From positions 7,601 through 71,600 of IMG/VR virus record IMGVR_UViG_3300030012_001696: a stretch of 64,000 bases of DNA. The stretch is one strand, 5' to 3'. Below the pieces are notes generated by a model, which was not told the DNA's origin, did no database searches, and saw only the letters and a program-made list of their open reading frames with translations. How positions within the stretch are numbered: the stretch's first letter is position 1; every line of letters begins with the position of its first letter. Origin of the DNA: a virus. A program made the translations under genes and the position numbers. Shown piece by piece: positions 4,320 to 28,800 of the stretch.

Positions 4320-5207
4320 TTAATTCTCCCAACAGTTTATTTTATCTTTAGTAAATTCCATTGTTATCCACCCAGTTCGTTGTATTCCATAAAAAGAATA
4401 TCTTGCATAATCTGCGTAGCGTAAAAATGAACCTCCTCTAATATACCACTTTCTTTTTAAAGTTTCCAGACCTTCTTCATCAATAGTTAAAGAATCTATA
4501 GGTTTGCAATATAGTTGGTGATTATGTCCTAAGAAAAATACATCCCCATCACTATACACTGATGCCATTTTATCTAATTCAGTATCACCATTTTTAGCAC
4601 CACTTTTACCATGTCCACTAACCATGTACCAGTCTTTACCTTGTATTGTAATACGTGCATATCCAGGTAATCTATAGTAAGGAACACCCATTTCACTTGC
4701 TAATGTTTTGCAAATATCAAAGTCTAATATATTAAAACTTCGTAAATAATCATGATTACCACCACGAATAAACAAACATTTATCAGCAATTGGTTGTACC
4801 AATTTTAAAAATGCTAAGTATTGTTGTTCGGGTGTCATACATTGTCCACGTTGATTAATGTTATAGTTAGGCGGTATAAGTTCTATCATATCACCATTAC
4901 CAAACCATCGTGCATTTGGGTCTTCGTAAATAATTTTTATAGCTTCTTGGAACTTTTTTAAATCAAATTCGTTAGCACCTACGTGTACATCCGTTAATCC
5001 GTGCACTCTAAGTTTTTCATCGCTATCAACAGCAAATACTTTACCTGGTTCTATTTCTAATTTGTCATACTCTTTTACATCACTAGGTATAGGTATTGAA
5101 AACCATTTACCACACGATTTACAACTAAATTGTTGTTTGACAGTATCTTTATTTCGTTTCTTGCCCTCTTTTTTAGTGAGCATACTACTACAATGTGGAC
5201 AAATCAT
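4320..5207 (-). CDS. Calcineurin-like metallophosphoesterase with N-terminal zinc ribbon
   Basis: CPHC...CKSC; DVHVG, GNGD, GGNHD, HG and GHNH motifs. Confidence 0.85.
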   Translation of the reverse strand: MICPHCSSMLTKKEGKKRNKDTVKQQFSCKSCGKWFSIPIPSDVKEYDKLEIEPGKVFAVDSDEKLRVHGLTDVHVGANEFDLKKFQEAIKIIYEDPNARWFGNGDMIELIPPNYNINQRGQCMTPEQQYLAFLKLVQPIADKCLFIRGGNHDYLRSFNILDFDICKTLASEMGVPYYRLPGYARITIQGKDWYMVSGHGKSGAKNGDTELDKMASVYSDGDVFFLGHNHQLYCKPIDSLTIDEEGLETLKRKWYIRGGSFLRYADYARYSFYGIQRTGWITMEFTKDKINCWEN

Positions 5208-5983
5208 TAGTCCTCCTGTGTTGTTTCTGGTAATATTTTGCGTTGAGCACCTTCTATTTCATCAGGACTAAACCCTTGAAACAATCCTACTACACCTGTT
5301 TCTACTTTTTTAACTTGATTGCCTAACGTACCTATAGCTTTACCTAATTCTTTAATAGATTGTAATGCTATGTTTTGGTCTTCGCTAGTATCAGCTAGTT
5401 GTTTCAACGAACCTAATATGTATGCGTGGTCAATGCCTAGTTCTTTAGCTACTTCTTTAGAAGTTTTTTCTATTTCACTCATTACTCGCTCCTGTTTTAG
5501 TAATATTACTGCTTTTTTACGTGCAGTATTACGATTTTTTTCAGTAAACGCTTTCATATAAGCACTTACAGCATCCTTTCCAACTGCGACGCTAGTCGCA
5601 AAAATTTTTTCTTTATTGGTACACTTCGTGCGTTGTTTAACTCTTTTGTTTGTATTTTTAATTTTTTGTGAAAATGTGTATCTATTAGGGTGTTTGGCAA
5701 AATCGGTATCCATATATGTCTTTGCACTTCTTATAAATGTACCAACAACAGTTCTGACATAACCATCATTACTAGAATAGTTTTTGCTATCCTTCGGATG
5801 GTGCAGATTTTCAGATACTTTTAATAATTGTATTATGCGCCCATCATCGCTAAGTACCCAATCGCCCTCTCGCCCTTTTCTCCAATCTTTAACAAGAGGG
5901 GTCACTGGATAAGTTTCTCTAAATTCTTCAGTATTATCGTAAATGTAATGACGTACTCGTTTGATAACCTTACTTTGTGGCAT
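5207..5983 (-). CDS. Putative terminase small subunit A
   Basis: Upstream of TerL; C-terminal AYMKAF...A..LLK HTH-like segment; homolog of 60073-60828. Confidence 0.6.
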   Translation of the reverse strand: MPQSKVIKRVRHYIYDNTEEFRETYPVTPLVKDWRKGREGDWVLSDDGRIIQLLKVSENLHHPKDSKNYSSNDGYVRTVVGTFIRSAKTYMDTDFAKHPNRYTFSQKIKNTNKRVKQRTKCTNKEKIFATSVAVGKDAVSAYMKAFTEKNRNTARKKAVILLKQERVMSEIEKTSKEVAKELGIDHAYILGSLKQLADTSEDQNIALQSIKELGKAIGTLGNQVKKVETGVVGLFQGFSPDEIEGAQRKILPETTQED

Positions 5984-6278
5984 TCTTTTTTTCTAGTTGT
6001 TTATGTAATGATTCAATCAAAAACATTACTTGTTTTGGTATAAAATACTTTGTTCCGTTGATTTCTATAGGTACACTACTAGTTCCCTCGTCTGCATCCA
6101 TATCGTCTATTTCATTTAGTACATAACCTTCTTCTTCTATTTCAGATATAAGTATTTTTTCTAGCTTTACAAGCTTTTGTATATGTTCAAGTATTTTAAC
6201 TTGCTCTTTATACGGCAACTTGCCTAGCCATTTTATTGCTATTCCCATTGATTTTCCTTGACAAACTTTAGAAAACAC
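5970..6278 (-). CDS. Hypothetical protein (true start probably MGIAIKW, ~6248)
   Basis: ORF in the operon. Confidence 0.55.
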   Translation of the reverse strand: MFSKVCQGKSMGIAIKWLGKLPYKEQVKILEHIQKLVKLEKILISEIEEEGYVLNEIDDMDADEGTSSVPIEINGTKYFIPKQVMFLIESLHKQLEKKNATK

Positions 6279-6335
6279 CTTATTTTTAAGCTACCAAGTA
6301 GCTACTAAACAGATAACTAAGTTATATAACTAGTT

Positions 6336-6518
6336 CTATTTCTTTTTCTTTGGTACTTTCTTTTTCTTTAACTCGGCAGCTGCTCGTTCTTTTTCAGCTA
6401 AAATATCTAAGACAGCTTCTTCAAGCATCTCTTGTTCTCTTTGTTCAGCTAATTCAGCTTCTCGTCTAGCTACACCAGTTAAACCAGTCTTTTCTAAGTC
6501 TTTAGTTGTATACGTCAT
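6336..6518 (-). CDS. Hypothetical protein, possibly leaderless
   Basis: ATG lies 5 nt downstream of a putative -10 (TAAGTT) with no SD sequence. Confidence 0.5.
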   Translation of the reverse strand: MTYTTKDLEKTGLTGVARREAELAEQREQEMLEEAVLDILAEKERAAAELKKKKVPKKKK

Positions 6519-6523
6519 AATAT

Positions 6524-6552
6524 AACTTATGTATAACCCATGTTATTTCCAA
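6524..6552 (-). promoter_or_regulatory. Putative sigma70-type promoter for packaging operon A (TTGGAA-17-TAAGTT)
   Basis: Read on the minus strand; the same TAAGTT -10 is seen upstream of operon B (~62532). Confidence 0.4.
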
Positions 6553-6635
6553 GAAAAAATATAGCATTTTGAAATGGACCTATATACACACACCCTACCC
6601 CCCTTCGGTGGGTTTCGGTTTTTGTAGTTTACGTT

Positions 6636-6944
6636 ATGAGTGAAAATATATCTCAAGACCTAGTAAATGATGTGCCTAGTGAAGTAAAAGAACTTGTTAA
6701 TGACTTAACAAAGAAGTACTTTGCGAATGCTCAGCAGATTACTAAGATGCAAGCTATGGGTGTTAGAACCAAGATTCAACCATGGCAATTATCAAGTCAG
6801 TTCAAAGCAGACATTCAATTAGTTACTCAAGAACTTACTCGTTTCTACATGACACCTCAGCGTGTTAATGACAATGAGTCAAGACTGAGCACTCTTGAAA
6901 GTAAGCTAGACTCACTGATAGATGCATTGAAGCCGCCTAAATAA
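6636..6944 (+). CDS. Hypothetical early protein
   Basis: First ORF of the divergent plus-strand arm; C-terminal coiled coil. Confidence 0.6.
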   Translation: MSENISQDLVNDVPSEVKELVNDLTKKYFANAQQITKMQAMGVRTKIQPWQLSSQFKADIQLVTQELTRFYMTPQRVNDNESRLSTLESKLDSLIDALKPPK

Positions 6945-7147
6945 GCGGAGGTCCCAAGTTTTAGGGTTGTACTTGGTTAATCAACAGCCCTAACCTATCT
7001 AACTCTCTACTCTTTGAAGTTATAGTTACTTAGGTTTTTAGAATTATCTACTATTAATATTAACATATGGCAGTAGATTGTGAGTAGAGGGACCATAATA
7101 GTCGTATTATCGGAGGAGAGGTAATACCCGCATATATATACACATTA

Positions 7148-7167
7148 TGTGGATAACATGGGGATAA
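7148..7167. promoter_or_regulatory. Tandem DnaA boxes (TGTGGATAA, TGGGGATAA)
   Basis: Reverse complement TTATCCACA (perfect) and TTATCCCCA (one mismatch), 11 bp apart, after a TATATATA run. Confidence 0.55.
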
Positions 7168-7190
7168 ACATAAATCCTCTTTAAAGAGCT

Positions 7191-7276
7191 TCTGTAATAA
7201 CTATCACGACGTCGTAGCTTACCGAAAGGTTGAAGCGGTCAATATAGTTAGAATACGGCTATTATAGACATATTCT
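7191..7276 (+). ncRNA. Compact pseudoknotted structured RNA candidate
   Basis: Pairings: 7191-99/7260-68, 7200-04/7244-48, GCTT-ACC-GAAA-GGT-TG-AAGC hairpin, and crossing pair GTCGTA 7211-16/TACGGC 7254-59. Confidence 0.5.
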
Positions 7277-7309
7277 GAATAAACATATAACTATGAAATG
7301 GAGTGAACT

Positions 7310-7483
7310 ATGACTAAAGAAGTAATAAAAGAAATTGGTAATGTATTAACTAGTGGTTATCTTAACAATAATAAAGTGTTTACTATCTTATCTTTATTAG
7401 TGGCGAATGGTGACGCTAATGCGGATATGAACATGGAGGAAATTGATAGAGTCCTTCGTGAGCATTTTACTATCAAAAACTAA
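7310..7483 (+). CDS. 57-aa hypothetical early protein
   Basis: GGAGTG RBS; MTKEVIKEIGNV... translated by eye. Confidence 0.6.
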   Translation: MTKEVIKEIGNVLTSGYLNNNKVFTILSLLVANGDANADMNMEEIDRVLREHFTIKN

Positions 7484-7588
7484 ATTATGAGGGAGTAGGT
7501 AGAGCGACTAAGCAATCATTATATATACCATTAGTTAGTTCACTTCTCCTACTTCCTTATATTAATCTATAACTTACATGGAGGTCCT

Positions 7589-7741
7589 ATGTATATTAGA
7601 TTAGAAAAGTCCTTTAATGACTATCTTAGGATAAGTTATGAAGGCAATGGTATGTGGTATTATCGTTGGAATGGTCTAGTTCCAAATGATAATGTTGATA
7701 CCTGGACTATGATTGATGTAGTCCTAGCCTTTCTTAAATGA
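7589..7741 (+). CDS. 50-aa hypothetical early protein
   Basis: GGAGG RBS; MYIRLEKSFND... translated by eye. Confidence 0.6.
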   Translation: MYIRLEKSFNDYLRISYEGNGMWYYRWNGLVPNDNVDTWTMIDVVLAFLK

Positions 7742-7749
7742 AGGGCTTT

Positions 7750-8570
7750 AGAAAAAGTTTTCGTTTACTCAACGATGTCTAGAGTCGGGTGTATATGCTC
7801 GTTACATAAAACTCAGAAATGAGTATAAAGTCAGAAATGGCGACATTATCTTCGGATAGTGTTTATGTATAAAATTGGAATATCAATTATGGCGTACAGA
7901 TTCTCTCCTCGGTGAAAGCCAGGGTTTATCTAGATGTAATTGACTAGCACGATAGGGGTGTTAGTTGAGTTGGAAACAGCAATAAGAAAATCCAAAAGAT
8001 AATGAGTTAAGTGTCGTTGCGGTACTTGTTATCAGTCAGCATAGGTGAATGTCGTAGAAATACACAATCATCGTAGCTAGGACTACTTAAAACTCTAGAT
8101 AACGACTAGAGACGGTAGGAAGTACTTATACTATTCACTTCTCAAAAGGAAGTGAGGTATATAATTTTGTGCGGTACTTTCACATGACCCTTACTTTGCT
8201 ATAATATACAAACGTATTAACGTAAAAACTAATATCAAGCATATATAACAAAAGGAAAAGTCACAAAACGTTTTAAATCAAAAATGTTCTTGTTGTTGTC
8301 TGAAATACGATAGCTTCTAGTTGCCCCCAAAGCGCTAGAAAATTGACAAACAGCCAAGTTGGTCTAATTAACCATTAGTTGGAGCGGTAGCTTCGGATTG
8401 AGCTTAGTAGTCGGTTAACAGATTAAAACGATAAGAGTGATTAGCTATACTAATTGAACATGACATCGCAGTATGTAGGCAACTATAACTGGATAAAAGA
8501 CTTAAGGGTAGAAATCCGTACGGGTCTCAAGGAGATGTTGGTAAAGGTGTAATCTCAACCTTTGCAATAC
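7750..8570 (+). ncRNA. Large structured non-coding RNA (~820 nt), GOLLD-like in size and style
   Basis: No ORF of 60 aa or more. Many GAAA/UUCG hairpins (7811-24, 7830-41, 7843-62, 7911-20, 7969-80), a multibranch junction closed by 7803-10/7862-69, a stem at 8135-55 and a terminal stem-loop AAAGGT-GTAATCTCA-ACCTTT. Confidence 0.7.
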
Positions 8571-8837
8571 TTACTCAAAGAATTATTTGATGGTATATTA
8601 ATGTGTTGATTTCCCAAAGTATATTTTATACGTTAATATCTACAACATTTGTTAGTGATTGTAGTGTTTTTCGTATTTAACTGAGCAATAGCAAAAAAGC
8701 AGACGGATAGAAACGGCAACAGTTATTATATCTGGATAATGGAAGTGAGGTGATGAGCCGCATTCTAATCACATAAATACTAATGTAGGTTGAGCGTTGT
8801 AGTAAATACAGCGCAATACACCCTTTAAAGAAAGAAG

Positions 8838-9365
8838 GTGAACATGAAAGATTTATTAGCGCCATTTATACAAAGTGGTAGTCAAGGGTATGATACAGCA
8901 TTGAACTCTATGGCTTGGTGTAGAAGAACTAAAGATAAACATGGTAAAACATATTATATGGTAAAGTTTAGCGATAAATATTTATATCATATAACTCTTA
9001 ATGATTACTATGAAGATGCAATGAAAAAGTTTCACATTATGTGGGATGATACTATAATAGTAACAGATGAAGTTAAAGAATATAGAAAACATTATAAAAA
9101 TATACATACTATTCCACGTTATCAAATGTGGAGATTAGATAATAAAAAGTATACAAAAGTATCTTCCTTAAATTTACATGAAGACCAAAATGGTAGACCT
9201 TACTATTTTATACCAAAAACTAAAGTTATTCCATTTAAAACTGATATGAGATTTGTGCTGAAGAAAAATTATTATATATTTCATCAAGATATAAATAAAG
9301 ATGGAACTTTGAAAAATAAAGCGAGATTATGGTTTCCAGTGAAGCCATGGGCGTTTCAACCTTAA
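8838..9365 (+). CDS. Hypothetical protein
   Basis: 175-aa ORF immediately downstream of the RNA-rich region. Confidence 0.7.
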   Translation: MNMKDLLAPFIQSGSQGYDTALNSMAWCRRTKDKHGKTYYMVKFSDKYLYHITLNDYYEDAMKKFHIMWDDTIIVTDEVKEYRKHYKNIHTIPRYQMWRLDNKKYTKVSSLNLHEDQNGRPYYFIPKTKVIPFKTDMRFVLKKNYYIFHQDINKDGTLKNKARLWFPVKPWAFQP

Positions 9366-9374
9366 GGAGTGAAC

Positions 9375-9548
9375 ATGAAAGATACACCTAAACCTTATCA
9401 AGAATACTATTTAAGGATTCAAGATACGGACAACAGAAAAAGTAAAGCAGTATTATCAGCATACGCAAAGTATAGACGTGAAACATTACTTGGTCGTATT
9501 GCAGATAGATTTGATAGATTAATCGATATAATAAGTAAGAGGAGCTAA
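9375..9548 (+). CDS. 57-aa hypothetical protein
   Basis: AAGGAG RBS; MKDTPKPYQEYY... translated by eye. Confidence 0.6.
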   Translation: MKDTPKPYQEYYLRIQDTDNRKSKAVLSAYAKYRRETLLGRIADRFDRLIDIISKRS

Positions 9549-9550
9549 AC

Positions 9551-10171
9551 ATGGGATTCGATTTATATGGTGAGAAACCAATAGAAAATGAGTTTGAACA
9601 TCAAGAAAGATGGGATGAATTATCATCTATGTCTTATGAAGAAAGAGAAGAAAAAAACTTAGATGATGAATATTACACTTTAATGAGCAAATATGAAGAC
9701 ATAAATCCAGGTGCATATTTTAGAAATAATGTATGGTGGTGGAGACCTTTGTGGTCATTTGTTTGTGAAAATTGTGAAGACATATTAACTGAAAAAGATA
9801 TGAATAATGGTTGTTATAACGACGCACATATAATATCTAGAAGAAAAGCCGAAGCAATAGCCGTTAGACTTGAAGAGGTTATCGAATCGGAAGAAACAAA
9901 AATGTGGATTAAAGAACACGAAGATAATTTGCAACAAGCTAAGCGCAACAATAAACAAGTTGAAGCTGAACTAAAAGAACTCAAAAAATTAGTTGAAGTA
10001 GAAACAGGTAATCCTGACATTTACCCAGCTATATATCCAGACAAGTTTAAGAAAAAGTATGATGAAATTTATGATAGAAGAGATTGGGCAAGCAGTTATC
10101 CATTTTCTAAAGATAACGTCATTAACTTTATTAAATTTGCAAGACAATCAGGAGGATTTTCAATATGTTAA
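9551..10171 (+). CDS. Conserved hypothetical phage protein (MGFDLYG...YFRNNVWWWRPLW...SGGFSIC)
   Basis: Recognisable phage-family motif pattern; good RBS. Confidence 0.75.
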   Translation: MGFDLYGEKPIENEFEHQERWDELSSMSYEEREEKNLDDEYYTLMSKYEDINPGAYFRNNVWWWRPLWSFVCENCEDILTEKDMNNGCYNDAHIISRRKAEAIAVRLEEVIESEETKMWIKEHEDNLQQAKRNNKQVEAELKELKKLVEVETGNPDIYPAIYPDKFKKKYDEIYDRRDWASSYPFSKDNVINFIKFARQSGGFSIC

Positions 10172-10419
10172 GAGATAAAACTCAAACATTGCGTATTCTC
10201 GGACATCTAAAAAGACATGGTAACATTACATCTATGGAAGCATTTAAGAAATATAGTGCTACAAGATTAAGTGCAATCATATTTAGATTAAGAGAAGAGG
10301 GTTTTGACATTGATACCAGAAAAGAACACAAAAATAATAAGTCTTTCGGTAGATACGTGTTAGAAGACACTCAAAATAATCTTCAATTACTATACGAGTA
10401 TAGAAGATTGGTAAATTAA
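10165..10419 (+). CDS. Winged helix-turn-helix protein (HTH_39-like)
   Basis: Q..RIL.HL...G.ITS.EA...Y...RLSA.IF.LR..G pattern. Confidence 0.8.
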   Translation: MLRDKTQTLRILGHLKRHGNITSMEAFKKYSATRLSAIIFRLREEGFDIDTRKEHKNNKSFGRYVLEDTQNNLQLLYEYRRLVN

Positions 10420-10540
10420 TATCACCGTATCACCATTGGATACATACACTAAGAAGGAAGGGTTTCGTTTATTGTTTTCCTATTTATGATTTTGCAATCA
10501 ACAATACTCTTTTATCCTTCCTTTTTAGCCTGAATAGGTA

Positions 10541-10569
10541 TTGACTATAACCTGATAAATAGTTATATT
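10541..10569 (+). promoter_or_regulatory. sigma70-type promoter TTGACT-17-TATATT
   Basis: Near-consensus boxes with 17-bp spacing upstream of the recombination operon. Confidence 0.7.
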
Positions 10570-10583
10570 CTTGAGGAGGATTC

Positions 10584-11333
10584 ATGATAGACATACCAAA
10601 AATATATAACGAATACTTGCAACGTAAAAGTGTAGAAAACCGTAAGAAATATAAGAAATATAAAGGATGGTTTTCAGCTAGTAGCGCAGGTAGTTGTTAT
10701 AGAAAACAATTACATAGAAGACAAGACTTAGAGCTTGACCCTATGGATGAAAAGAGTGCTAGACTTCTAAGATTAGGTACATTAGTACACGCTGATTTCG
10801 AAGAAGCACTAAAAGAATTTGACATTGAAGAACGTGTAGACAAACCAGATGAGATTCAAGTACTAACAGAACATAGAATAGAAATACCAGAACTCATGGT
10901 TGTAGGACACTTAGATGTTGGTGTAGTAAACCTAGAAGGTGAAATGATACATGTATATGATATTAAAACCGCAGGTGCTTGGAAATGGCGTATGAAATTT
11001 GGTAGAAATCCAGACAAAAATCCAAGTGTAAACTATGAATTACAATTAGCTACTTATGCGATAGGATTAGGTAATGAAAAAGATATTACTGATTTAAGAC
11101 TATCTATTATGTGGTACAATAAAGACAATTCAATGATGCGTGAAGAAAAGATTAGTGAATTATATCTTGAAGAAGCGTTTGATTATTGGACAGATTTAAA
11201 TGAAACTTCTGATAGTGTTGCAGGTAAACCTGAAGAACTGAATCCAGGTGAACAGAATGTACCAGTATATAATTGGGAATGTAAATATTGTGAGTTTCAG
11301 GGTAAATATTGTCCTGGATTGTATAATATTTAG
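10584..11333 (+). CDS. Cas4-like PD-(D/E)XK exonuclease
   Basis: SAS...C, GHLD, DIKT, QLATY and C-terminal CKYC...C (four-Cys cluster). Confidence 0.85.
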   Translation: MIDIPKIYNEYLQRKSVENRKKYKKYKGWFSASSAGSCYRKQLHRRQDLELDPMDEKSARLLRLGTLVHADFEEALKEFDIEERVDKPDEIQVLTEHRIEIPELMVVGHLDVGVVNLEGEMIHVYDIKTAGAWKWRMKFGRNPDKNPSVNYELQLATYAIGLGNEKDITDLRLSIMWYNKDNSMMREEKISELYLEEAFDYWTDLNETSDSVAGKPEELNPGEQNVPVYNWECKYCEFQGKYCPGLYNI

Positions 11334-11341
11334 GAGAAAAA

Positions 11342-11542
11342 ATGAGCAAAGAAGAAACGCATTGTTGTTTGTGTGAAGGTGTATTAGACGACCCATACGG
11401 ACACAATGCTGAACCAATAATGACAGGTAGATGTTGTAGTATTTGTAATATATCTGCAGTAATACCTATAAGATTAAAACTTTTACAGATTAGTTTAGAT
11501 AAAGATGGAGGAAATAAATCGTGGAAGAAAAAAATAAAGTAA
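11342..11542 (+). CDS. Small zinc-finger protein
   Basis: CCLC...GHNAEP...CCSIC. Confidence 0.7.
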   Translation: MSKEETHCCLCEGVLDDPYGHNAEPIMTGRCCSICNISAVIPIRLKLLQISLDKDGGNKSWKKKIK

Positions 11543-11712
11543 CTAAAGATGAATGGATAGCTTTTCTGGAGGTAAGACAAGATGGACAATATAATATGTT
11601 TAGTCCTCAAGCTAGGGATAGTGCTGGTCTTGATAAAGATAAGTGGAAAGAAATAATGAATAATTTTGATGATTTATATGAAAAATGGGGGGACTTAAAT
11701 GAGTGCGTTTAG
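11521..11712 (+). CDS. Hypothetical protein (DUF5049-like)
   Basis: VRQDGQYNMF motif. Confidence 0.6.
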   Translation: MEEKNKVTKDEWIAFLEVRQDGQYNMFSPQARDSAGLDKDKWKEIMNNFDDLYEKWGDLNECV

Positions 11713-12256
11713 TGTATTAAGTAAAATAGATGTAAGTGAACATACAGAAAAGAAAGGTAAATTTACATATCTTTCTTGGGCTTGGGCTGTAAAAGTATTG
11801 CTAGAAGAGTTTCCCAAAGCTACATGGCAAATACATACTTTTATAGATAATGGTATAGAATCACCTTATATGCGTACTAACGCTGGTTGTTTTGTACAAG
11901 TATCTGTTGAGATAGATAAAGTTATTAGAACTCAAGTACATCCAGTATTAGACCACATGAATAAAAGTGTAGATGAACCTAACGCTTTTCAAATAAACAA
12001 TTCAATACAACGTTGTTTAGCGAAAGCAATAGCATTACACGGATTAGGATTATATATCTATGCTGGTGAAGATTTACCAACTGAGCCTGAAGCGTTAAAT
12101 ACAAAACAAGTAAATGAACTATTTACATTACTTGATGAAATAGATAACGCCCAACTTACTGAGCAAATAAAGAAAGCTGTTGATAGTAAAGAAATAAACG
12201 ATAGCAACTTTAAAGGAGCTATGGCTAAACTAAGGAGGCAACATGAAGTCTCTTAG
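11699..12256 (+). CDS. Sak/Rad52-like ssDNA-annealing protein (DUF1071)
   Basis: TYLSWAWA...QRCLAKAIALHGLGLYIYAGEDLP signature. Confidence 0.9.
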   Translation: MSAFSVLSKIDVSEHTEKKGKFTYLSWAWAVKVLLEEFPKATWQIHTFIDNGIESPYMRTNAGCFVQVSVEIDKVIRTQVHPVLDHMNKSVDEPNAFQINNSIQRCLAKAIALHGLGLYIYAGEDLPTEPEALNTKQVNELFTLLDEIDNAQLTEQIKKAVDSKEINDSNFKGAMAKLRRQHEVS

Positions 12257-20053: not shown

Positions 20054-22837
20054 CTATAAATTATTCAACGACCTAAGTATTTCATTGATATTTTGTTTTG
20101 GCTTACCTTTAGATTTTTTCTTTTTTTCAGGTAAGTCAGGCAAATAATCGCCAACTAATCTATCTGCACCTTTGTATAAATTACGTAATCTTTCTTTTTG
20201 AGCTCTTGTATCTTTATTTGGAAACAGACCAAGTTCTCCTTGTACTAACACACCAAGATTAACACCTTTACTCATTCTAGGAAATGTATTTGTATATGCA
20301 CGATGCACTTGTGTATTTAATAATCTTATAACTTCTTGGAATTTTTCATTACCATCTTTTTCAGATTCGTCTTGATAACCAACTAAATAAGATAACATAT
20401 CATCTTCTTCTAATTCATATAAACCAGATAAATTTCCAATTGTAATTAAGTCTGATATAGTAGGACCACCAGCTGTACCAATAATAGGACCTTTACCAAA
20501 GAAAGCATCTTTTCTACGTTCTGGGTCATCTGATTGAAATGCATCACGATAATTTTTAAATCTTTCCCATGTATCGTTTTGTACAAGATTACCAAAGTTT
20601 GCATTTAATATAGGAGAAATTAATCCATTAATAGTAGCATACATAATACCTAATCTATACATTCTCCAACCAGCTGCGCTATTCCATTGTCCAGCAAATA
20701 TAGCATCTTTTGCATCTAAAGCAATTTTACGTTGTAGATTAAAAAAGTTTACACCATAGTGTTGAAATTGTCCAATAACCGCACCAGTAGGTGTAGTTAA
20801 AAATTTATTTTTACCAGTTAAACTATAATCAAAATGCAAGTTTTCAACTGCGGCATTACCTGCGTTATCAGCTAATTTTCTTTTATACATTTCTAATTCT
20901 ACTTCATATACAGTAGCATCCTTTTCTTTAAATATAGTTTCTGTTTTATTTCTATCAGCTTTAAGTCTTTCTACAGATAGATTAGCATTAGAAGCTACCA
21001 TTAATCTTTCTTTATCTTTGCCTTTAGCTTTTTTAATTTTTCTTTCTAAATGTCTATCAAATTTTGATACAAAGTTAGGGTCAGCACTCATTAATTTCCA
21101 TTGACTTGTATATCCTATTTTATATGTAAATCTTCTATTAATATTATTTTCTACAAATTCCATAGGTTTACCAGATATTCTAGCAACTTCTTCTAATTTA
21201 TTTTGCAATGATTGTCCTAAACTATTATCAATTTGTAATTTTATAGTACCAGATTTTTTATCAAAATATCTATTATATGGCAAAGCTCCATATATTTCTT
21301 GGAACTCAGGAAATAAAATACCATTATTTTCTAAACCTTGTTGTACTCTAGTTTGCATTTCTTTATTATTTAACATTCTGTTTGTATCTAATATACCTTT
21401 ACTACCAAACCATATATAATTAAACAAACTTTGTGTAGCGTTTCTAGCAGCTGCACGGAAGTTTAAACCAAGTTTACTTAAGAATTGATAAGATGTAAGC
21501 GTTCTAGCTAAGTTAGCACCACCAGCATCTTTAAATCCACCAGATATAACGTCATAATGGTCTGATGCATAATTTTCTAAAAACTTTAGTTTAGCATCTA
21601 ACTCATACATTCCTTTATCGTTTTGTGCTTTTAACGCTACATCATTTATATTTTTAAGTAATTCACTATATTTTAATACATTAAAAGAAGTGTAATTAAA
21701 ACGATTAGCACTTCTAACATAACTATCTATAATAGGAATAACATTATAATTAATAGGACCATTGATTTGTTTATTAGTGTTACCTAAATGTTCATTAATA
21801 TAAGCGTTGTCAGAAAATATTTTATCAACACTTTTAATCATGTCAATAGCTTCTTGCCTTGTATCTCCTTTACTACTGTATAACAATTCAGAAGCTCTAG
21901 ATAAAGTAGGCATAATATCAAATGTTAATACAGGAAAATATCCATCTTTTTGTAATTGTTTAGATTCATATTTTTTAATAATATTATCTAAAATACCAGT
22001 ATTTTCTTTATTAGTTAAATCTTTAGCTCCTTCTATATCTCTAAATTGAGACATACTTTTTCTAATACCATTTCTAAAATTTCTAATCCCTTGCATAATT
22101 CTTTGTTGCGCAACAGGTTGAATGTTTCTTCTATAAATAGTAGCAGCTTCATATATATTAGCATCGTATTTACCTAAGCTACTATCAAAGTCATTACTTT
22201 TCATTGTAACAAGTTCATGAAACTCTCTCAAAGCACGACCTTCGCCTTTTTGAATAAATTTATCTATTTCTGCGTAAGTATTAATTGCTTCTTCGTGTAA
22301 ACCTTTTTGTCTTTGTTTATTATAAGTAGCATATAATTTTCTTATGTCTGCCTGTGCTGATTTAAAATCATATCCATATCTAGCAGAAGCTTCTTTAAGA
22401 TTACGCATTACTGATGCTATTTGTGAGTCAAAATATTGACCAAATCCTTTTTGTTGGTAATTAGAATTTTGTACATCTTGATACCATTTTTCTACAAAAG
22501 GTATATCTTTATATATTTCTTTTGGTAAGTATAACCATTTTGCAAAAAAGCCTCTTTTTCTTGTTATATTTTTTAATTCTCTATCTCTAATTCTTTTAAA
22601 AACTTTTAGTTCTTCAGCGTTCGGAACTTCGTGATAGCGTTTTGTGTTAAAACCATGAACAGCATCTCTAGAATGATTTAAGATTCTTCTAAACATAGCT
22701 ACTCTATTACTGTTTCCAAGTATCTGCATAATAGGTAAGTTTTGAAACTCTCTAGCAGTTTTCATAAAAACTTCTTCTTCTTTTTGTTTTTGAGGGTTAG
22801 GGTCTAATGGTATACAATCTGGTTTTATCATGGACAA
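20054..22837 (-). CDS. Large putative internal virion/ejection protein
   Basis: 927 aa; last gene of the structural arm, after the vRNAP-like gene. Confidence 0.6.
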   Translation of the reverse strand: MSMIKPDCIPLDPNPQKQKEEEVFMKTAREFQNLPIMQILGNSNRVAMFRRILNHSRDAVHGFNTKRYHEVPNAEELKVFKRIRDRELKNITRKRGFFAKWLYLPKEIYKDIPFVEKWYQDVQNSNYQQKGFGQYFDSQIASVMRNLKEASARYGYDFKSAQADIRKLYATYNKQRQKGLHEEAINTYAEIDKFIQKGEGRALREFHELVTMKSNDFDSSLGKYDANIYEAATIYRRNIQPVAQQRIMQGIRNFRNGIRKSMSQFRDIEGAKDLTNKENTGILDNIIKKYESKQLQKDGYFPVLTFDIMPTLSRASELLYSSKGDTRQEAIDMIKSVDKIFSDNAYINEHLGNTNKQINGPINYNVIPIIDSYVRSANRFNYTSFNVLKYSELLKNINDVALKAQNDKGMYELDAKLKFLENYASDHYDVISGGFKDAGGANLARTLTSYQFLSKLGLNFRAAARNATQSLFNYIWFGSKGILDTNRMLNNKEMQTRVQQGLENNGILFPEFQEIYGALPYNRYFDKKSGTIKLQIDNSLGQSLQNKLEEVARISGKPMEFVENNINRRFTYKIGYTSQWKLMSADPNFVSKFDRHLERKIKKAKGKDKERLMVASNANLSVERLKADRNKTETIFKEKDATVYEVELEMYKRKLADNAGNAAVENLHFDYSLTGKNKFLTTPTGAVIGQFQHYGVNFFNLQRKIALDAKDAIFAGQWNSAAGWRMYRLGIMYATINGLISPILNANFGNLVQNDTWERFKNYRDAFQSDDPERRKDAFFGKGPIIGTAGGPTISDLITIGNLSGLYELEEDDMLSYLVGYQDESEKDGNEKFQEVIRLLNTQVHRAYTNTFPRMSKGVNLGVLVQGELGLFPNKDTRAQKERLRNLYKGADRLVGDYLPDLPEKKKKSKGKPKQNINEILRSLNNL

Positions 22838-25800
22838 TACCTTTTATTTTTCTTAATCATGTTACTTGCTTCATCTGTTACATCATATTTTCTTCTACTA
22901 GAAGAACCACTACCGCCTACGTTTCCTATTGGCTCAAATGGTCTTCTATAATCTACAATATGATTTACGCCATCTCTACGTACATATAATCTATTTTGTA
23001 AATCTAAACTATTCTCAAAATCTTTTATACCATTTATACTCATACGTCTAAAATCTCCTAAACCAGTTACGTCATAAAGACCACCAACTACACTATCTGG
23101 TGAGGTATCACGTAATTTAGGCAATAATTCTTGTACAGTTCCATATTTAAAATGTTTTACTAATAACTCATATGTACTTAATCTTGAAACACCAGCATAT
23201 TCTGGGTTAAATATTTGTACTAATTTACTTTTTTGGTGTCCCATAGCTGGAGAAAATATATCTACATAACCAGTATCTCCAGGAATAAAATCAGCATTAT
23301 TGTTTCTTGCTTGTTCACCAGTTCTTAATAATTGATTTGCATTAGAGTAATGTTTTCCTAATTCTTTTATAAATAATTTTTGCATTTCAGGGCTATCTTT
23401 AAACATTCTATTATTTACTCTTAAACCTAATGTAACAAATTTTTCTTGTCGTTTAGTTTCTGGTTTAGGAAATACTTTTCCTTTAAAAGTTATTAGTTTG
23501 TATGGTTCAATTCTAGGAGTCATAACCTTAGCTAAATAAACATTATTTAAACTTAAATCTCCTAATACAGACATTTCACCTAGCATTCTATTAGTAAAGT
23601 ACTCGTATATTTCTGCTGCATCAGAAAACTCTACAGGTTCCTTCATATCTTTAAATTGTACTTTTTCATTATTACGTAAAGAATACCAAGCTTGTTGAAA
23701 ATCTCTTCTTACATCTTGTGCATTTTTATTTAATTCAGAATATTCTTGTTTTCCTATACCTAAATCAAATTGTTTTAATTGACTATATCTACCAAAACCT
23801 TCTAACATAGCTAAAGAATGTATTAAATCTCTATCTGCATAAGGTTCAATGGTATATTTTTTATTTTTCATATCTTCTTTTGCTTCTGCTTTAATCTTTT
23901 TTAATTGTTCTTCTGAAGCTTCTTTTCCATTTTTTCTTATATAGTCTCTTAATTTGTCTACTACTAAATCATTTTCAATTTGTTTTAAAATACTTTCAGA
24001 AACAGGAATTTGTTTTTTTATTTCTTTTAAAAGATTTTCCAAATATAAAATATTTTTATTTAATCTATTTCTACTTGTAGGACTTTGTAATGTATCTTTT
24101 AAACGTTTCATTTTTCTTATTCTAGTATACAATGCATTAGCATATTCGTGTTTATTTCTTGAATAATCTATTTGATTTTCTAATGCTTTAGTTAAATTTT
24201 CGCTTATCATAAACTCATCTAATGTTTTATTATATTCTTCACTAGGTCTTGAATACAAATCTCTATCATTAATTTTTTGAGTAATGTTTCTAATATGCAT
24301 TATTTCTGATAATAATCTATCGTATGTCATAACACTACCACTAAAATCTGTACCATTTCTATTAGCTCTTATAATAGCATTATCACCAAATCCAAACAAA
24401 TCTATATCTGTTTGTTTTACGCCTAAATCTTTAGCCATATTAAATTGCAATGTTCTCATACTACTATTATATGTTTCTAAACCAGTTATCATATCTTGTA
24501 ATGATACGCTTTTTTGTCTACCTCTATCATATTGAAAGTTAGATAATCTTAATAAATCTGAATATGGAGTAAATAAATGTTCATAAATAACATCTTTTTC
24601 TTTTCCTGTTAAAGCGGCTACTCCTTCTTGTCCTTCTCTTTTTGATAAAATACTTGTTTTTAAATCTATTTCAGTACTTTGTTTACCTTCTGTAGTAGTT
24701 TTATATGCAATTTTATCTACACCATATACTTCAAAAATACCATCTTTTCCTAAAAATAAATCTTCATATATTGCTTTTCTTGATTGAAACAATCCATGAT
24801 TATATCCGTTGTAAGCATCTAATACATGTTGATTGTAGTCTGCAATTTTTTGATATACAGCTTTCATATCTAAATCTTGTTTAATAACTAAAAATCTATT
24901 ATCAGGTATTTTCATTATAAATCCATTAACTGTATCTATTTTACCTAATTCAGCTATAGTTCCATCTTCTTTCATAGTAGAATTTCTAGCTATTCTATAT
25001 TGAGTAGGTGAGTTAGCATAGTTATTTATTAACCATTGTAATAAACGTTGTGATTGCATAACAATACCTTTTGCAATATCTGATTGACGTAACTTATTAT
25101 GTATATAATCCATTCTAGTATCGTAATCTGTATATTTTAAATTAGCAAAACTCATTTCACTATTTGTAGTTTCAACATTTCTACTATCTGATATAACACC
25201 TCTATTATTCCAATATTCTTTCATAACATCATGTTTCATATTGTGGAAATAATTGATAGTGTCAATATCAAAATCACCTTCAGCCGCTCTTTTTAAATCT
25301 ACGGCATTAAGTTTTGCTACATTATCTGCGTTAAAGTTTTTTAAAGCTACTGGCATAATGCTAGAATGTTTTACGTGAGGTTGTCTTTCACCAATTATTA
25401 ATATTTTATATTCTGGGTGGTTAGCTTCTAACTTGTCAAATAATTCTCCTAAGTTTTTTATTTTTCCAAATCTATCTTTTACAACTGTATTAGCAGTTAC
25501 AATTGTATCAGCTTCACCTTTATTTTGTTTTACTAGAGTAATTAAATCTAAACTTTCAACACCTGTATTTCTTACAGATTCAGGTACAGATATTTCACCT
25601 GCTTGCCATATTTTTCCATCTAATATAATAGTGTTTTGAAGTTCTGCTTTTCCAAAAGCATTTATATCAGGAGCTAATACACTACTACCACCTTCTACTT
25701 TAGTTTTAAATAGAGGGTCAATTTCAAATGTTTTAAAAACAGCATCTAATCTTGTAGGTAGTAATCCAGGGTTTACATTTGCTTCAGCTAATAACGCATC

Positions 25801-28800
25801 TAAACCTAATGTTTCATTATTAAGTTCAGTAGTTCCTTCTTCATAAACTTTTTGTCTTTGCCATAATTTATATTGTGCAATAGCTTCAGCCTCTCTCATA
25901 GGGTCTGTAAATATTTCTGCATTATTTCTTACACGAGCTACTCTATCTCTAATAATATAATTATAAAATTCACCTACTGCATCTGGTGATAAATTAACTG
26001 TATGATTCAAACCTATTGCTGCTTTATTTTTATGTTCTTTAACACTTATTAGTTGCATATGTTCTGGGTTTAAAGCATTTGTTTGAGAAATATCTAACTC
26101 TTTTGCTTTAGCTGGAGTTATTTCGTTTCCTTTAGCATCTGTAACTGGAGGCTCAGACCATAAATCTTTACTTTCAATAGTTTTAATAGCATAGTTTTCT
26201 CCAATTTTTTTAGAAGCTGAAGTAAATGTTATACTAGCTACTCCTGGATTAGCGTCAAAAATCTTTTGTATTTCTGCGTTTTTCATAATAGCAGTTTTAT
26301 TAATAAAATAATTACTACCTTGTCTTAAAATAATAGGTTTAACACCGCTAACATCACCTAAATCTGTTTTACCTAATAATAAAGCTAATGCTTTCATTTT
26401 ATTTTCAGGCATAAAAGTAACACCATTAACATCACTAGCATCTGATACAGCGTCATTTCTTAATTCAGCTTGTTCTTTTGCTTTTAATTCTTGTAATTTA
26501 ACTATATCAGGGCTATTAGGATTAACTTCTCTTATAGCTTCTATAGCTCTATCATAAGCTTCTATTTGCTGTTTAACTACAGAGTGTATTTCATCTACTA
26601 ATTTACCTTCATATCCACCAGCTAATACTTCATCTGCTATAATTAATTGTCTCCATTTACCATCTGCAAAATCTTTTAATTCATTTCTTACTACTTTATC
26701 TTGAAGGCGAATACCAGGTTCATCTAAAAAATTAACAACATCATTTATGTCTTCTTTAGTAAATCTTTTTGCGCTTATGTTATCAAATAGTTTTAAACGT
26801 TTTACTAGTCCAGCAGAAGTTTTACCCTCTCCATTTCTTTGGTTACTCCACCATTCTTTTTTACCAAATAATTCTCCAACAATCATATCATTCAACATTA
26901 TATCTAATTCTTTTGTAGCTGTTTTATAATTATTAGAAAGAGAATCTTGTTTTAAAGTTTTCCATTCATAACGTGTTGTACCATCTGCTTGTGTTACTGG
27001 TTTTACATTTACTTTATCTAACAAGTCTTGTTTTTCTGCTGAGACAAGTTTATCTTTAATAACACTATCTAAATACTCAGCATATTTAGTTGCAATTCTA
27101 TTACCAACACTTGTGTCTTTTGGTATAAGATATAAATATTTGTTATCTCCATATTGATATGTTAAATATTTTTGATTTGTAGGAACTTCAGTTGGGTTCA
27201 TATTCATGTATCTATACATGTTATGAGAAGCTACATATTCTCCAGTATATAATAATCTTTGTGCTGTATTTAAAAATGATACATCATTAATACCTTTATA
27301 AAATCCTCCAAACCCTACACCTTGTGAATCTAATATGTGAATTGGCATATCAGCATTATCTGCAATCTCACTTAATCTTTCTATTACAATAGATTTTTTA
27401 ATTATTTCATTACTGAACGTAGCATTTTGAGTATTGTTAGCATTCATTACAATTCGTTTAGTATTATAATTACTTTTGCTATTTAACAAAAATGTCATAG
27501 TAGTTAATTCAATACTTTCTAAATCTCTTTTACTTAAATTAGGATTATTGTCAGTTAAGTCTTTCATAAAGTCTTTGGTGAAGTTTGTAATGTTTCCATT
27601 ATATCCACCTTGTGTAACTTCATCTAAAAATAACTTGTTTACATATTGACTATTACTTAAATCAACACCATTTTCTTTTGCACTAAATTTTTTAAATACG
27701 TTGTTGACTAATATTTGTTGTATGTCTGATATGTTATAATCATTTATAGTTAAACCTTCTTCTTTTAATAGTTGTCTATATAAAGAATTAATTTCTGTAT
27801 CTATTTCTTGAAACTTTGTAGTTTCTAACATTTTTTTCAAACGAGTTCTTAGTTCTAACCAAGTATTATTATTATACTCTTTAAAATCTTTTTTGTAAAA
27901 ATCATAAATTTTTAATTCAGTAGCTAATGAAACTAAATCTAATGCATCTCCTCTTCTACTAGCTTCTTTTATTGCGGCATAAAGATATTTTTTAGTTTTT
28001 AATTCTTCTTGTTTATCTAATATTTGTTTTTCAGTAAATGCTCCACGTTGTACAGATATATCAAATTGCATTAAATCTCTACTAATAGTATCCATTATTT
28101 CTGTAACAAAGTTTTGTTCTTTACCTAGCTTAATATCATTCATTGTTTGTAGTAATTGAACAGCATCTGCTTCAGTTATTACGGCTTTTTCAGTTGGACT
28201 AATTGTTACAAAACCACCTTTATCTGTTTTTATTAAAGGTCTCATTACTTCTTCTAATTCTTTAAATACTTGTTCTATATCAATATCTTTTCTTTGTTTA
28301 GATTCTATTAATTCTTTAAGTACCTCAACTTGAACTTCATTTAATCCATTAGATTCAGCGTTTTTTAATAACTCTTTTGCTTGTTCTACACTTAGTGTTG
28401 CATCTTTTGATATGTTATTAGCTTCTTTAAATGCTTCAATCTTTTTTATTGTATCCATACCACTTGCAATAAATCCTCTCATAGTGGTAGTGCCTGGTAT
28501 AATAAAACCTTTTTCTACTAGCTTAATATATTGATTAATATGAACATCAGTAATGTCAACTGGTTCTCCAGTTTTAGGGTCAATAACTTTAGCGCTAGAT
28601 ATTCTATCAAATAATATTTTTCTTTGTACATCATTAATAACTAATCTACCCTCACCAGCCCACTTAGTAACATTGTCAAATAATCTTATATCATTTCCAG
28701 GTTTAGAAAATTCATTTAATATATCTTTTGCTTCAGCTTGAGTAATTCTTTTATCAGCTACTGGTTTGTAATTAGAAGACAATACAGAACTACCAGATTC

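Follow-up and report, generated by a model that had tools for sequence, protein, structure and literature searches.

GOLLD RNAs are among the largest RNAs of bacteria and phages; their cage structures have been solved, and their function is unknown. The assembly of the cages and the roles of their domains are described by Kretsch et al. (bioRxiv 10.1101/2024.12.08.627333; PMC12286853) and in a review (PMC12990946), and tRNAs, ribosomes and stress proteins have been suggested as cargo. The canonical env-38 GOLLD, 833 nucleotides (nt) long, was solved as a 14-mer cage (10.1101/2024.12.08.627333; PMC12286853; PMC12990946), and the 700-nt GOLLD of Streptococcus agalactiae forms a 12-mer, its 3' domain alone a 10-mer (PMC12990946). 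Across the family the 3' region is reported as universally conserved, the 5' region as less so, with a variable linker that is unresolved (10.1101/2024.12.08.627333; PMC12286853). In this study, we analysed a 64,000-nt stretch of viral DNA (the window), which comprises bases 7601-71600 of the 71.6-kb IMG/VR record IMGVR_UViG_3300030012_001696, rated 100% complete; coordinates are window positions. We found that ~7780-8562 on the plus strand very probably is a full-length GOLLD RNA of ~780 nt that belongs to a divergent clade. The original prediction, made from the sequence, had proposed either a GOLLD variant or a new large RNA class; a full-length alignment to the GOLLD model and the homology of the 5' domain support the former and speak against the latter.

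Relationship of the RNA to the GOLLD family

The Rfam model of GOLLD, RF02032, has 416 positions, represents only the 3' part of the RNA and carries a curated gathering cut-off of 150 bits. At gathering cut-offs, the Rfam scan of the whole window returned no match. Under an E-value threshold in cmscan, RF02032 aligned end to end (model 1-416 of 416) to 8118-8561 on the plus strand, with 136.3 bits and an E-value of 2.2e-37, and this was the sole GOLLD match in the whole 71.6-kb record (E 1.9e-39). The alignment has few non-canonical pairs, and three signature motifs stand at aligned positions: the UCAAAAG loop, AAAAGUC ahead of the junction, and the terminal GUAAUCUCA loop. All three are retained in the related phages described below, with locus L006 deviating in the last loop. 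The 3' core consists of a closing helix (8269-8278/8421-8430) around a multi-stem junction, followed by 3' hairpins. In the cmscan alignments, the closing helix of Rfam is formed with differing sequence in both the window and the related locus L015; one subset of the relatives (group A) builds the same 3'-domain helices from other sequence, and helices 17-23 covary. ROOL, another family of large phage RNAs, gave no match at E up to 10 in 6900-9000 and none at gathering score in the whole window, and blastn of 7700-8620 against 50,697 deposited phage records found no match. The original prediction had named Rfam searches for GOLLD and ROOL as a check. Their outcome confirmed the RNA and refuted the novelty of its class, and the expectation that this would be the best candidate for an undescribed system was not borne out, since the RNA aligns full-length to GOLLD.

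As the 5' part of GOLLD is outside the Rfam model, 7786-8117 was tested separately. We collected 119 IMG/VR viral loci by a pattern search for the 3' hairpin and ran an nhmmer profile of the 5' domain over them. The profile matched 23 further loci at E <0.01 (for 22 of these, E was 1e-10 to 7e-6), and every match was followed ~800 nt downstream by a GOLLD 3' hairpin. Of the 23 loci, 15 were scanned with Rfam at gathering threshold, and all 15 carried a canonical GOLLD 3' domain (278-325 bits). An alignment of 16 sequences (the window, six relatives and nine canonical GOLLDs) gave an RNAalifold consensus of 34 pairs in 7 helices, which include the hairpins 7811-7824, 7830-7841, 7843-7862 and 7969-7980. 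In this alignment 97.8% of cells were paired, and compensatory (both-side) changes were found in 24 of the 34 pairs. When the partners were slid by 1-3 columns, 35-45% of cells stayed paired and 1-5 compensatory pairs were left, and the covariation score was reached by none of 500 shuffles. Taken together, these alignments indicate homology between the 5' half and the 5' domains of canonical GOLLDs. The less conserved 5' domain, the linker (8182-8268) and the 3' domain come to a total of ~780 nt, which fits the GOLLD plan of a ~350-420-nt 5' domain, a variable linker and an overall length of ~800 nt.

The protein of the downstream open reading frame (ORF), 8845-9365, was used as a synteny anchor and led to 14 related viral loci with 68-89% amino-acid (aa) identity. 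An ~800-nt RNA lies directly upstream of the anchor ORF in nine of them (L002, L003, L004, L006, L007, L011, L013, L014, L015). cmscan reported a sub-threshold GOLLD of 90-127 bits in five of the nine loci scanned; L003 and L013 went unreported despite 87-95% identity to L002, which we take as loss at the filter and not as absence. Between the window RNA and the nine related RNAs, only ~100 nt of similarity is detectable with blastn, and copies 98% identical to that of the window occur in L020, L023, L027 and part of L084. For the whole RNA, ten sequences of the phage group were aligned, and the RNAalifold consensus, minus one implausible long-range helix, comprised 133 pairs in 23 helices. 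We found 95.6% of cells paired and compensatory changes in 64 of the 133 pairs, compared with 7-14 compensatory pairs in the slid controls, and 0 of 500 shuffles reached the observed value. These substitutions indicate that the base pairs are under purifying selection.

The interval itself agrees with the description in the original prediction, which had called it ORF-free, plus-strand, rich in stem-loops and devoid of tRNAs. Between the stop of ORF 7589-7741 at 7741 and the next start at 8838/8845, neither strand holds an ORF longer than 40 aa. The longest standard ORFs of the gene-free interval 7742-8837 have 40 aa (minus) and 32 aa (plus), all six frames carry 22-33 stop codons each, and reassignment of a single stop codon still leaves no frame open beyond 86 codons. 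All of the predicted stem-loops were found at or near their given places (Table 1); the closing pairing TACATAAA/TTTATGTA is perfect in the window lineage only and is not retained in relatives (alignments read by eye). The plus strand of 7745-8570 had a minimum free energy (MFE) of -213.5 kcal/mol (z -3.76), a value matched by 0 of 20 dinucleotide shuffles, and the 5' half alone gave a z of -3.55. For the minus strand the z was -0.72, and 3 of 20 shuffles were as good. The folding signal is thus above chance and strand-specific, and it backs the plus-strand assignment together with the covariance-model match.

Transcription and rival explanations

Sequence of 7600-9000 was found in 20 of 24 listed public runs, all marine, seawater or estuary, and 8 of the 20 are RNA libraries. 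We mapped the contigs of four runs to 5000-12000, namely the RNA runs X3, X5 and X17, from two studies, and the DNA run X8, from the same sample as X5. In X3, the contig 7773-8822 had a depth of 179 (other contigs of the region 4-33), and in X5 the contig 7897-8848 had a depth of 76 (others 5-11). In X17, which comes from the other study, the contigs 7779-8222 and 8237-8535 had depths of 10.7 and 18.7 (others 2-3). Depth in X8 was flat, 2.6-4.8 throughout. The contig over the RNA was therefore the deepest of the region in all three RNA runs mapped, at 5-45 times the pieces over neighbouring genes. Metatranscriptome coverage had been suggested as a check by the original prediction, and these depths, strandless and at contig level, are in line with expression. 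We read them as good support for the existence and abundance of the RNA, and as field evidence from marine metatranscriptomes that it probably stands well above neighbouring phage transcripts.

The contig starts at 7773 and 7779, found in two studies and free of loose ends, coincide with the onset of homology to L020 and L027 (7781) and give a weak hint to the location of the RNA 5' end. The X17 contigs span the GOLLD part only. Those of X3 and X5 extend beyond its 3' hairpin as far as the beginning of the following gene; either the RNA is co-transcribed with that gene, or there is a stable species of ~1050 nt. One X17 contig breaks within the linker with a variant loose end, and the sequence of the linker varies even between 98%-identical copies. 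The break at 8222-8237 was not used as evidence; neither were uncovered stretches (e.g. 8978-9445 in X3) or a lone joint in the DNA run (8285>10634), which has just 21 letters on one side.

Several observations weigh against the assignment to GOLLD. The score of 136.3 bits lies below the gathering cut-off, so that a default scan is silent, and the matches of all relatives are also below it (90-127 bits); this cut-off is an operational annotation threshold and not a structural feature. Only within this phage group, and not with canonical GOLLDs, can the 3' third of the 5' domain (~7985-8117) be aligned. The ten sequences of the whole-RNA alignment amount to roughly three independent lineages, and both tested structures were derived from the alignments they were tested on. 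In addition, the RNAalifold consensus of these ten sequences misses the closing helix of Rfam, probably through local misalignment, and proposes two helices (15 and 16) that conflict with it. The RNA is also not near tRNAs, a frequent though not universal location of GOLLD. As to the libraries, each assembled contig gives a single depth figure, from which neither strand nor ends nor the true level can be read, and the runs had been picked for containing this stretch.

One alternative is a new large structured RNA class with a superficial likeness to GOLLD. Arguments for it are the score below the Rfam cut-off, the missing blastn similarity to deposited phages, and the lack of canonical counterparts to the 280-nt 3' extension and to a portion of the 5' domain. 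However, the covariance-model alignment is full-length (E 2e-37) with signature loops kept, and the 5' domain is independently homologous to RNAs whose GOLLD 3' halves score 278-325 bits, with shared helices that covary. We consider a new class extremely improbable. It is also very unlikely that the RNA is a decaying, non-functional GOLLD remnant, which would explain both the low score and the lack of a tRNA. The score is about half that of canonical GOLLDs, one hairpin is gone in group A and L006, and GOLLD is missing at its slot in five of the 14 related contigs. Decay is, however, difficult to reconcile with the pairing of 95.6% of cells and 64 compensatory pairs in lineages that have diverged beyond blastn detection. 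The RNA contig is moreover the deepest piece of the region in three RNA runs, and the 98%-identical copies in different flanks suggest a cassette that is retained and exchanged.

A further explanation treats the interval as mainly a DNA element or an ordinary 5' untranslated leader of the downstream operon, such as a promoter region, an origin or regulatory hairpins. The interval does have a conserved element upstream of it and an ORF downstream, RNA contigs extend into the start of that ORF, and no terminator-like site follows the RNA. But compensatory changes over ~130 pairs and homology to an RNA family of solved structure are unexpected for a DNA element or a plain leader, the X17 contigs span the GOLLD part only, and co-transcription with the next gene is compatible with a GOLLD RNA as well. 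A mere leader or DNA element thus appears highly improbable, and we favour a full-length GOLLD RNA of a divergent clade.

Comparison with known cage RNAs

The RNA follows the plan of canonical GOLLDs, with a 5' domain, a UCAAAAG-loop hairpin, a variable linker, and a 3' domain that ends in a GUAAUCUCA-loop hairpin. Like them, it is ~800 nt long and phage-encoded, and the first two thirds of its 5' domain can be aligned with theirs and covary. The differences lie in details. The canonical 3' domain scores 278-325 bits, whereas that of the window scores 136, and a short loop of GAAA type stands in the window RNA in place of one canonical inner stem in the first hairpin of the 3' domain. The loop at model positions 232-244 is CGCAA in canonical GOLLDs, UGUCGAAA in L040 and CUAAUUA in the window (8364-8370), where it holds the 6-nt palindrome UAAUUA (8365-8370); the hairpin is absent in group A and L006. 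Kretsch et al. (10.1101/2024.12.08.627333) describe a symmetric self-pairing kissing loop, L21a, in which GC and CG are switched. Going by its position, the window hairpin 8360-8374 may correspond to this kissing loop.

In the review (PMC12990946), the loss of individual helices accompanies 10-, 12- or 14-mer cages, and the S. agalactiae GOLLD illustrates that loss or shortening of helices alters cage stoichiometry. The window clade, and group A even more, is also without individual hairpins. The S. agalactiae RNA, likened here by description, belongs to a Gram-positive host with tRNA arrays, whereas the window RNA belongs to an uncultured marine phage without tRNAs. The switch of this putative kissing loop to the A/U palindrome UAAUUA and the loss of the hairpin in sister lineages would predict differing cage stoichiometry in near-identical phages. 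ROOL resembles the window RNA as a large, ornate phage RNA, forms a cage, has no known function and is often found near tRNAs (10.1101/2024.12.08.627333; PMC12286853). ROOL, whose cage is an 8-mer or 6-mer, differs in secondary structure, and the window RNA does not belong to it.

In canonical GOLLDs a tRNA lies 17-24 nt downstream in 8 of 15 loci, whereas the window RNA is followed by a 280-nt extension. No tRNA turned up in the window or the other 7.6 kb of its record, and the same holds for 18 related loci; neither the linker nor the 3' extension holds a tRNA or a tRNA relic (Rfam at E up to 10; ARAGORN). Two large viral contigs with canonical GOLLDs (108 kb and 321 kb; L080:2012-2389 (-) and L025:5469-5846 (-)) also have a transfer-messenger RNA (90-93 bits) within 1-2 kb of GOLLD, plus tRNAs.

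By analogy with the published cryo-electron microscopy structures of GOLLD, the transcript would fold into a 5' cap domain and a 3' ring domain and would form, by self-assembly, a closed homo-oligomeric RNA cage whose interior the linker faces. Such a cage might, speculatively, enclose or sequester macromolecules of the host or the phage in lytic infection. Because the phage has no tRNA genes, the role of a cage in this clade could not depend on phage tRNAs. This speaks against tRNA handling as the core function of GOLLD, at least in this clade, and against functions that strictly need phage tRNAs.

Our literature search on GOLLD with metatranscriptomes or phage context did not find this clade, which the alignment of Kretsch et al. 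may already include. Since the class is already known, the discovery is modest: a whole clade of marine-phage GOLLDs falls below the curated Rfam threshold and is thus missed. The natural variants (presence or absence of GOLLD, hairpin loss, loop change and the 233-nt alternative described below) could serve as a comparison set for cage size and function.

The alternative 233-nt element, flanks and phage context

In five of the 14 related contigs (L005, L008, L009, L010, L012), the GOLLD slot is taken by a 233-nt element. No GOLLD match at E up to 0.01 was found in these five records, which are 19-84% complete. The slot holds either GOLLD or the 233-nt element in 14 of 14 related contigs, and both together in none. 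The element occurs in 16 viral contigs with 10 distinct sequences. Its MFE in L012 had a z of -5.22, with 0 of 200 shuffles as good, and no Rfam match was better than E 2.7. Compensatory changes were found in 14 of the 68 pairs of its consensus, mostly from one divergent member and one hairpin, and one of its hairpins has a CAAAAG loop resembling that of GOLLD. We regard the element, which lies outside the window and is the most novel by-product of the analysis, as a candidate for an undescribed structured RNA. It is conceivable, although in our view doubtful, that the leader downstream of the 86-nt upstream element is a swap site for alternative large structured RNAs, and that a changed putative kissing loop or a lost hairpin alters the stoichiometry. 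If both RNAs were interchangeable early-expressed cassettes, the 233-nt RNA would be a new class and a handle on the function of GOLLD.

Table 1. Positions of the features in and around the RNA (window coordinates unless a contig is named)
Feature	Position	Strand	Basis or remark
Conserved 86-nt upstream element	7480-7565	+	92-100% identical in L002, L012-L015, L020, L027
50-aa ORF	7589-7741	+	On ~200-nt insertion between 86-nt element and RNA
Small hairpin UCGUU-UACUC-AACGA	7761-7775	+	Just upstream of first conserved GOLLD helix
Probable GOLLD 5' domain	7786-8117	+	nhmmer homology, covariation, MFE z -3.55
Stem ACTCA-GAAA-TGAGT	7811-7824	+	Present in sequence
Stem GTCA-GAAA-TGGC	7830-7841	+	Present in sequence
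Stem ACATTATC-TTCG-GATAGTGT	7843-7862	+	Present in sequence
Closing pair TACATAAA/TTTATGTA	Around the three preceding stems	+	Present in sequence
Stem GGT-GAAA-GCC	Near 7912	+	Present in sequence
Stem GTTG-GAAA-CAGC	7969-7980	+	Present in sequence
Stem GTA-GAAA-TAC	Near 8056	+	Present in sequence
Stem CTCTAG/CTAGAG	8093-8111	+	Present in sequence
TCACTTC-TCAAAAG-GAAGTGA inside AAGTAC/GTACTT	8118-8181	+	Present in sequence
UCAAAAG-loop long hairpin	8118-8181	+	Model positions 1-64 (cmscan); helices 12-14, 10/22 pairs compensatory
A-rich variable linker, conserved AAAAGGAAAAGUC motif at its end	8182-8268	+	Aligned to unpaired model linker
Probable GOLLD 3' domain core	8269-8562	+	RF02032 alignment up to model end 416
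Stem TCTAG/CTAGA	8316-8340	+	Present in sequence
Hairpin UGGU-CUAAUUA-ACCA	8360-8374	+	Aligned to model positions 232-244
3' hairpin, loop GTAATCTCA	8544-8562	+	Present in sequence
Terminal hairpin, invariant GUAAUCUCA loop	8544-8562	+	RF02032 alignment; stem AAGGU/ACCUU in window, AAUCC/GGAUU in group A
3' extension or next-gene leader	8563-8844	+	282 nt, ORF-free, window-lineage-specific
Downstream ORF	8845-9365	+	173 aa from ATG 8845, 175 aa from GTG 8838; no Pfam or PHROG family
2901-aa protein	22828-31533	-	Single DFDID motif, at residue 2087
233-nt element	L012:3757-3986; L005:3740-3974; L009/L010:3615-3847; L008:198-430		Also in L136-L151

The GOLLD-plus-extension cassette (7781-8850) is 96-98% identical in L020, L023, L027 and L084, and its flanks differ from those of the window: upstream in L020 and L027, and in the downstream gene in L020, L023 and L084. 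The different gene after the cassette in these last three indicates that GOLLD and extension recombine as a unit. The RNA cassette thus appears to undergo mosaic exchange between related phages. The extension (8563-8844) occurs only in the same four loci, at 96.5-96.8% identity, and has no Rfam match at E <2.

The original prediction had also expected several more structured RNAs in the flanks, and this found no support. We rejected 8562-8840 as a structured RNA, as it folds no better than shuffles (z -0.89 on the plus and -0.39 on the minus strand) and its relatives are near-identical copies only. The upstream gap 6945-7309 was rejected as well, with a weak z of -1.84. Scans of 6200-9000 returned 12 sigma-70 promoter-like sites (12.5 expected) and 2 sites resembling intrinsic terminators (0.9 expected); none of either kind was sensibly placed for the RNA.

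Upstream of the RNA, the 86-nt element directly adjoins the GOLLD RNA or the 233-nt element in relatives, with a gap of a few bases in group A and L020. Its function, which we infer, is possibly that of a promoter or leader, and no sigma-70 consensus was found in it. Reading by eye, we noted an imperfect inverted repeat within it, GGGAGTAGG ... CCTACTTCC, ~45 nt apart. The ~200-nt insertion with ORF 7589-7741 is present only in the window and L023 and is absent in L020, L027 and group A; the ORF has no Pfam or PHROG match. The small hairpin at 7761-7775 reads UGGU/ACCA in group A and L020 and UGUC/GACA in L011 and L006, which are compensatory variants (by eye). RNA contigs of two studies start at 7773 and 7779, inside or just past this hairpin, which may belong to the RNA or may serve in processing or as a promoter element.

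To the left of the RNA, minus-strand genes encode the large terminase (PHROG 38) and the small terminase. To the right, plus-strand genes encode a PD-(D/E)XK nuclease, a Sak-like annealing protein, a DNA methyltransferase and a DnaB-like helicase. The RNA is located near the start of this rightward replication and recombination block, and given this gene content, the "early region" of the original prediction is a reasonable inference. The carriers are a group of uncultured marine phages of ~72 kb, and the terminases of the closest cultured phages are <25% identical.

The phage had further been predicted to encode a virion RNA polymerase. The 2901-aa protein might be a two-barrel enzyme of this kind; its nearest named language-model cluster is a phage protein with an RNA-dependent RNA polymerase domain (PF05183) at a score of 0.80, which we treat as no more than a lead. 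Sequence searches of Pfam, PHROG and PDB gave no match for the 2901-aa protein, relaxed searches of residues 1701-2400 included. One DFDID motif and this lead are insufficient for the claim.

Two further stretches left of the RNA drew attention. At 7133-7169, a core of ~37 nt is kept in essentially all related loci, its surroundings having diverged. It includes TGTGGATAA (7148-7156), which we take to be the DnaA-box consensus, followed by the near-repeat TGGGGATAA; the window holds one exact TGTGGATAA match, with 0.87 expected, and conservation is the sole signal. The region 6280-6615, between the leftward and rightward gene blocks, contains a minus-strand ORF of 60 aa as well as a terminator-like hairpin (6594-6612). 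Identity of this region is 98-99% in L002 and L012-L015, where that of the neighbouring protein is only 68-89%, an unusually strong conservation.

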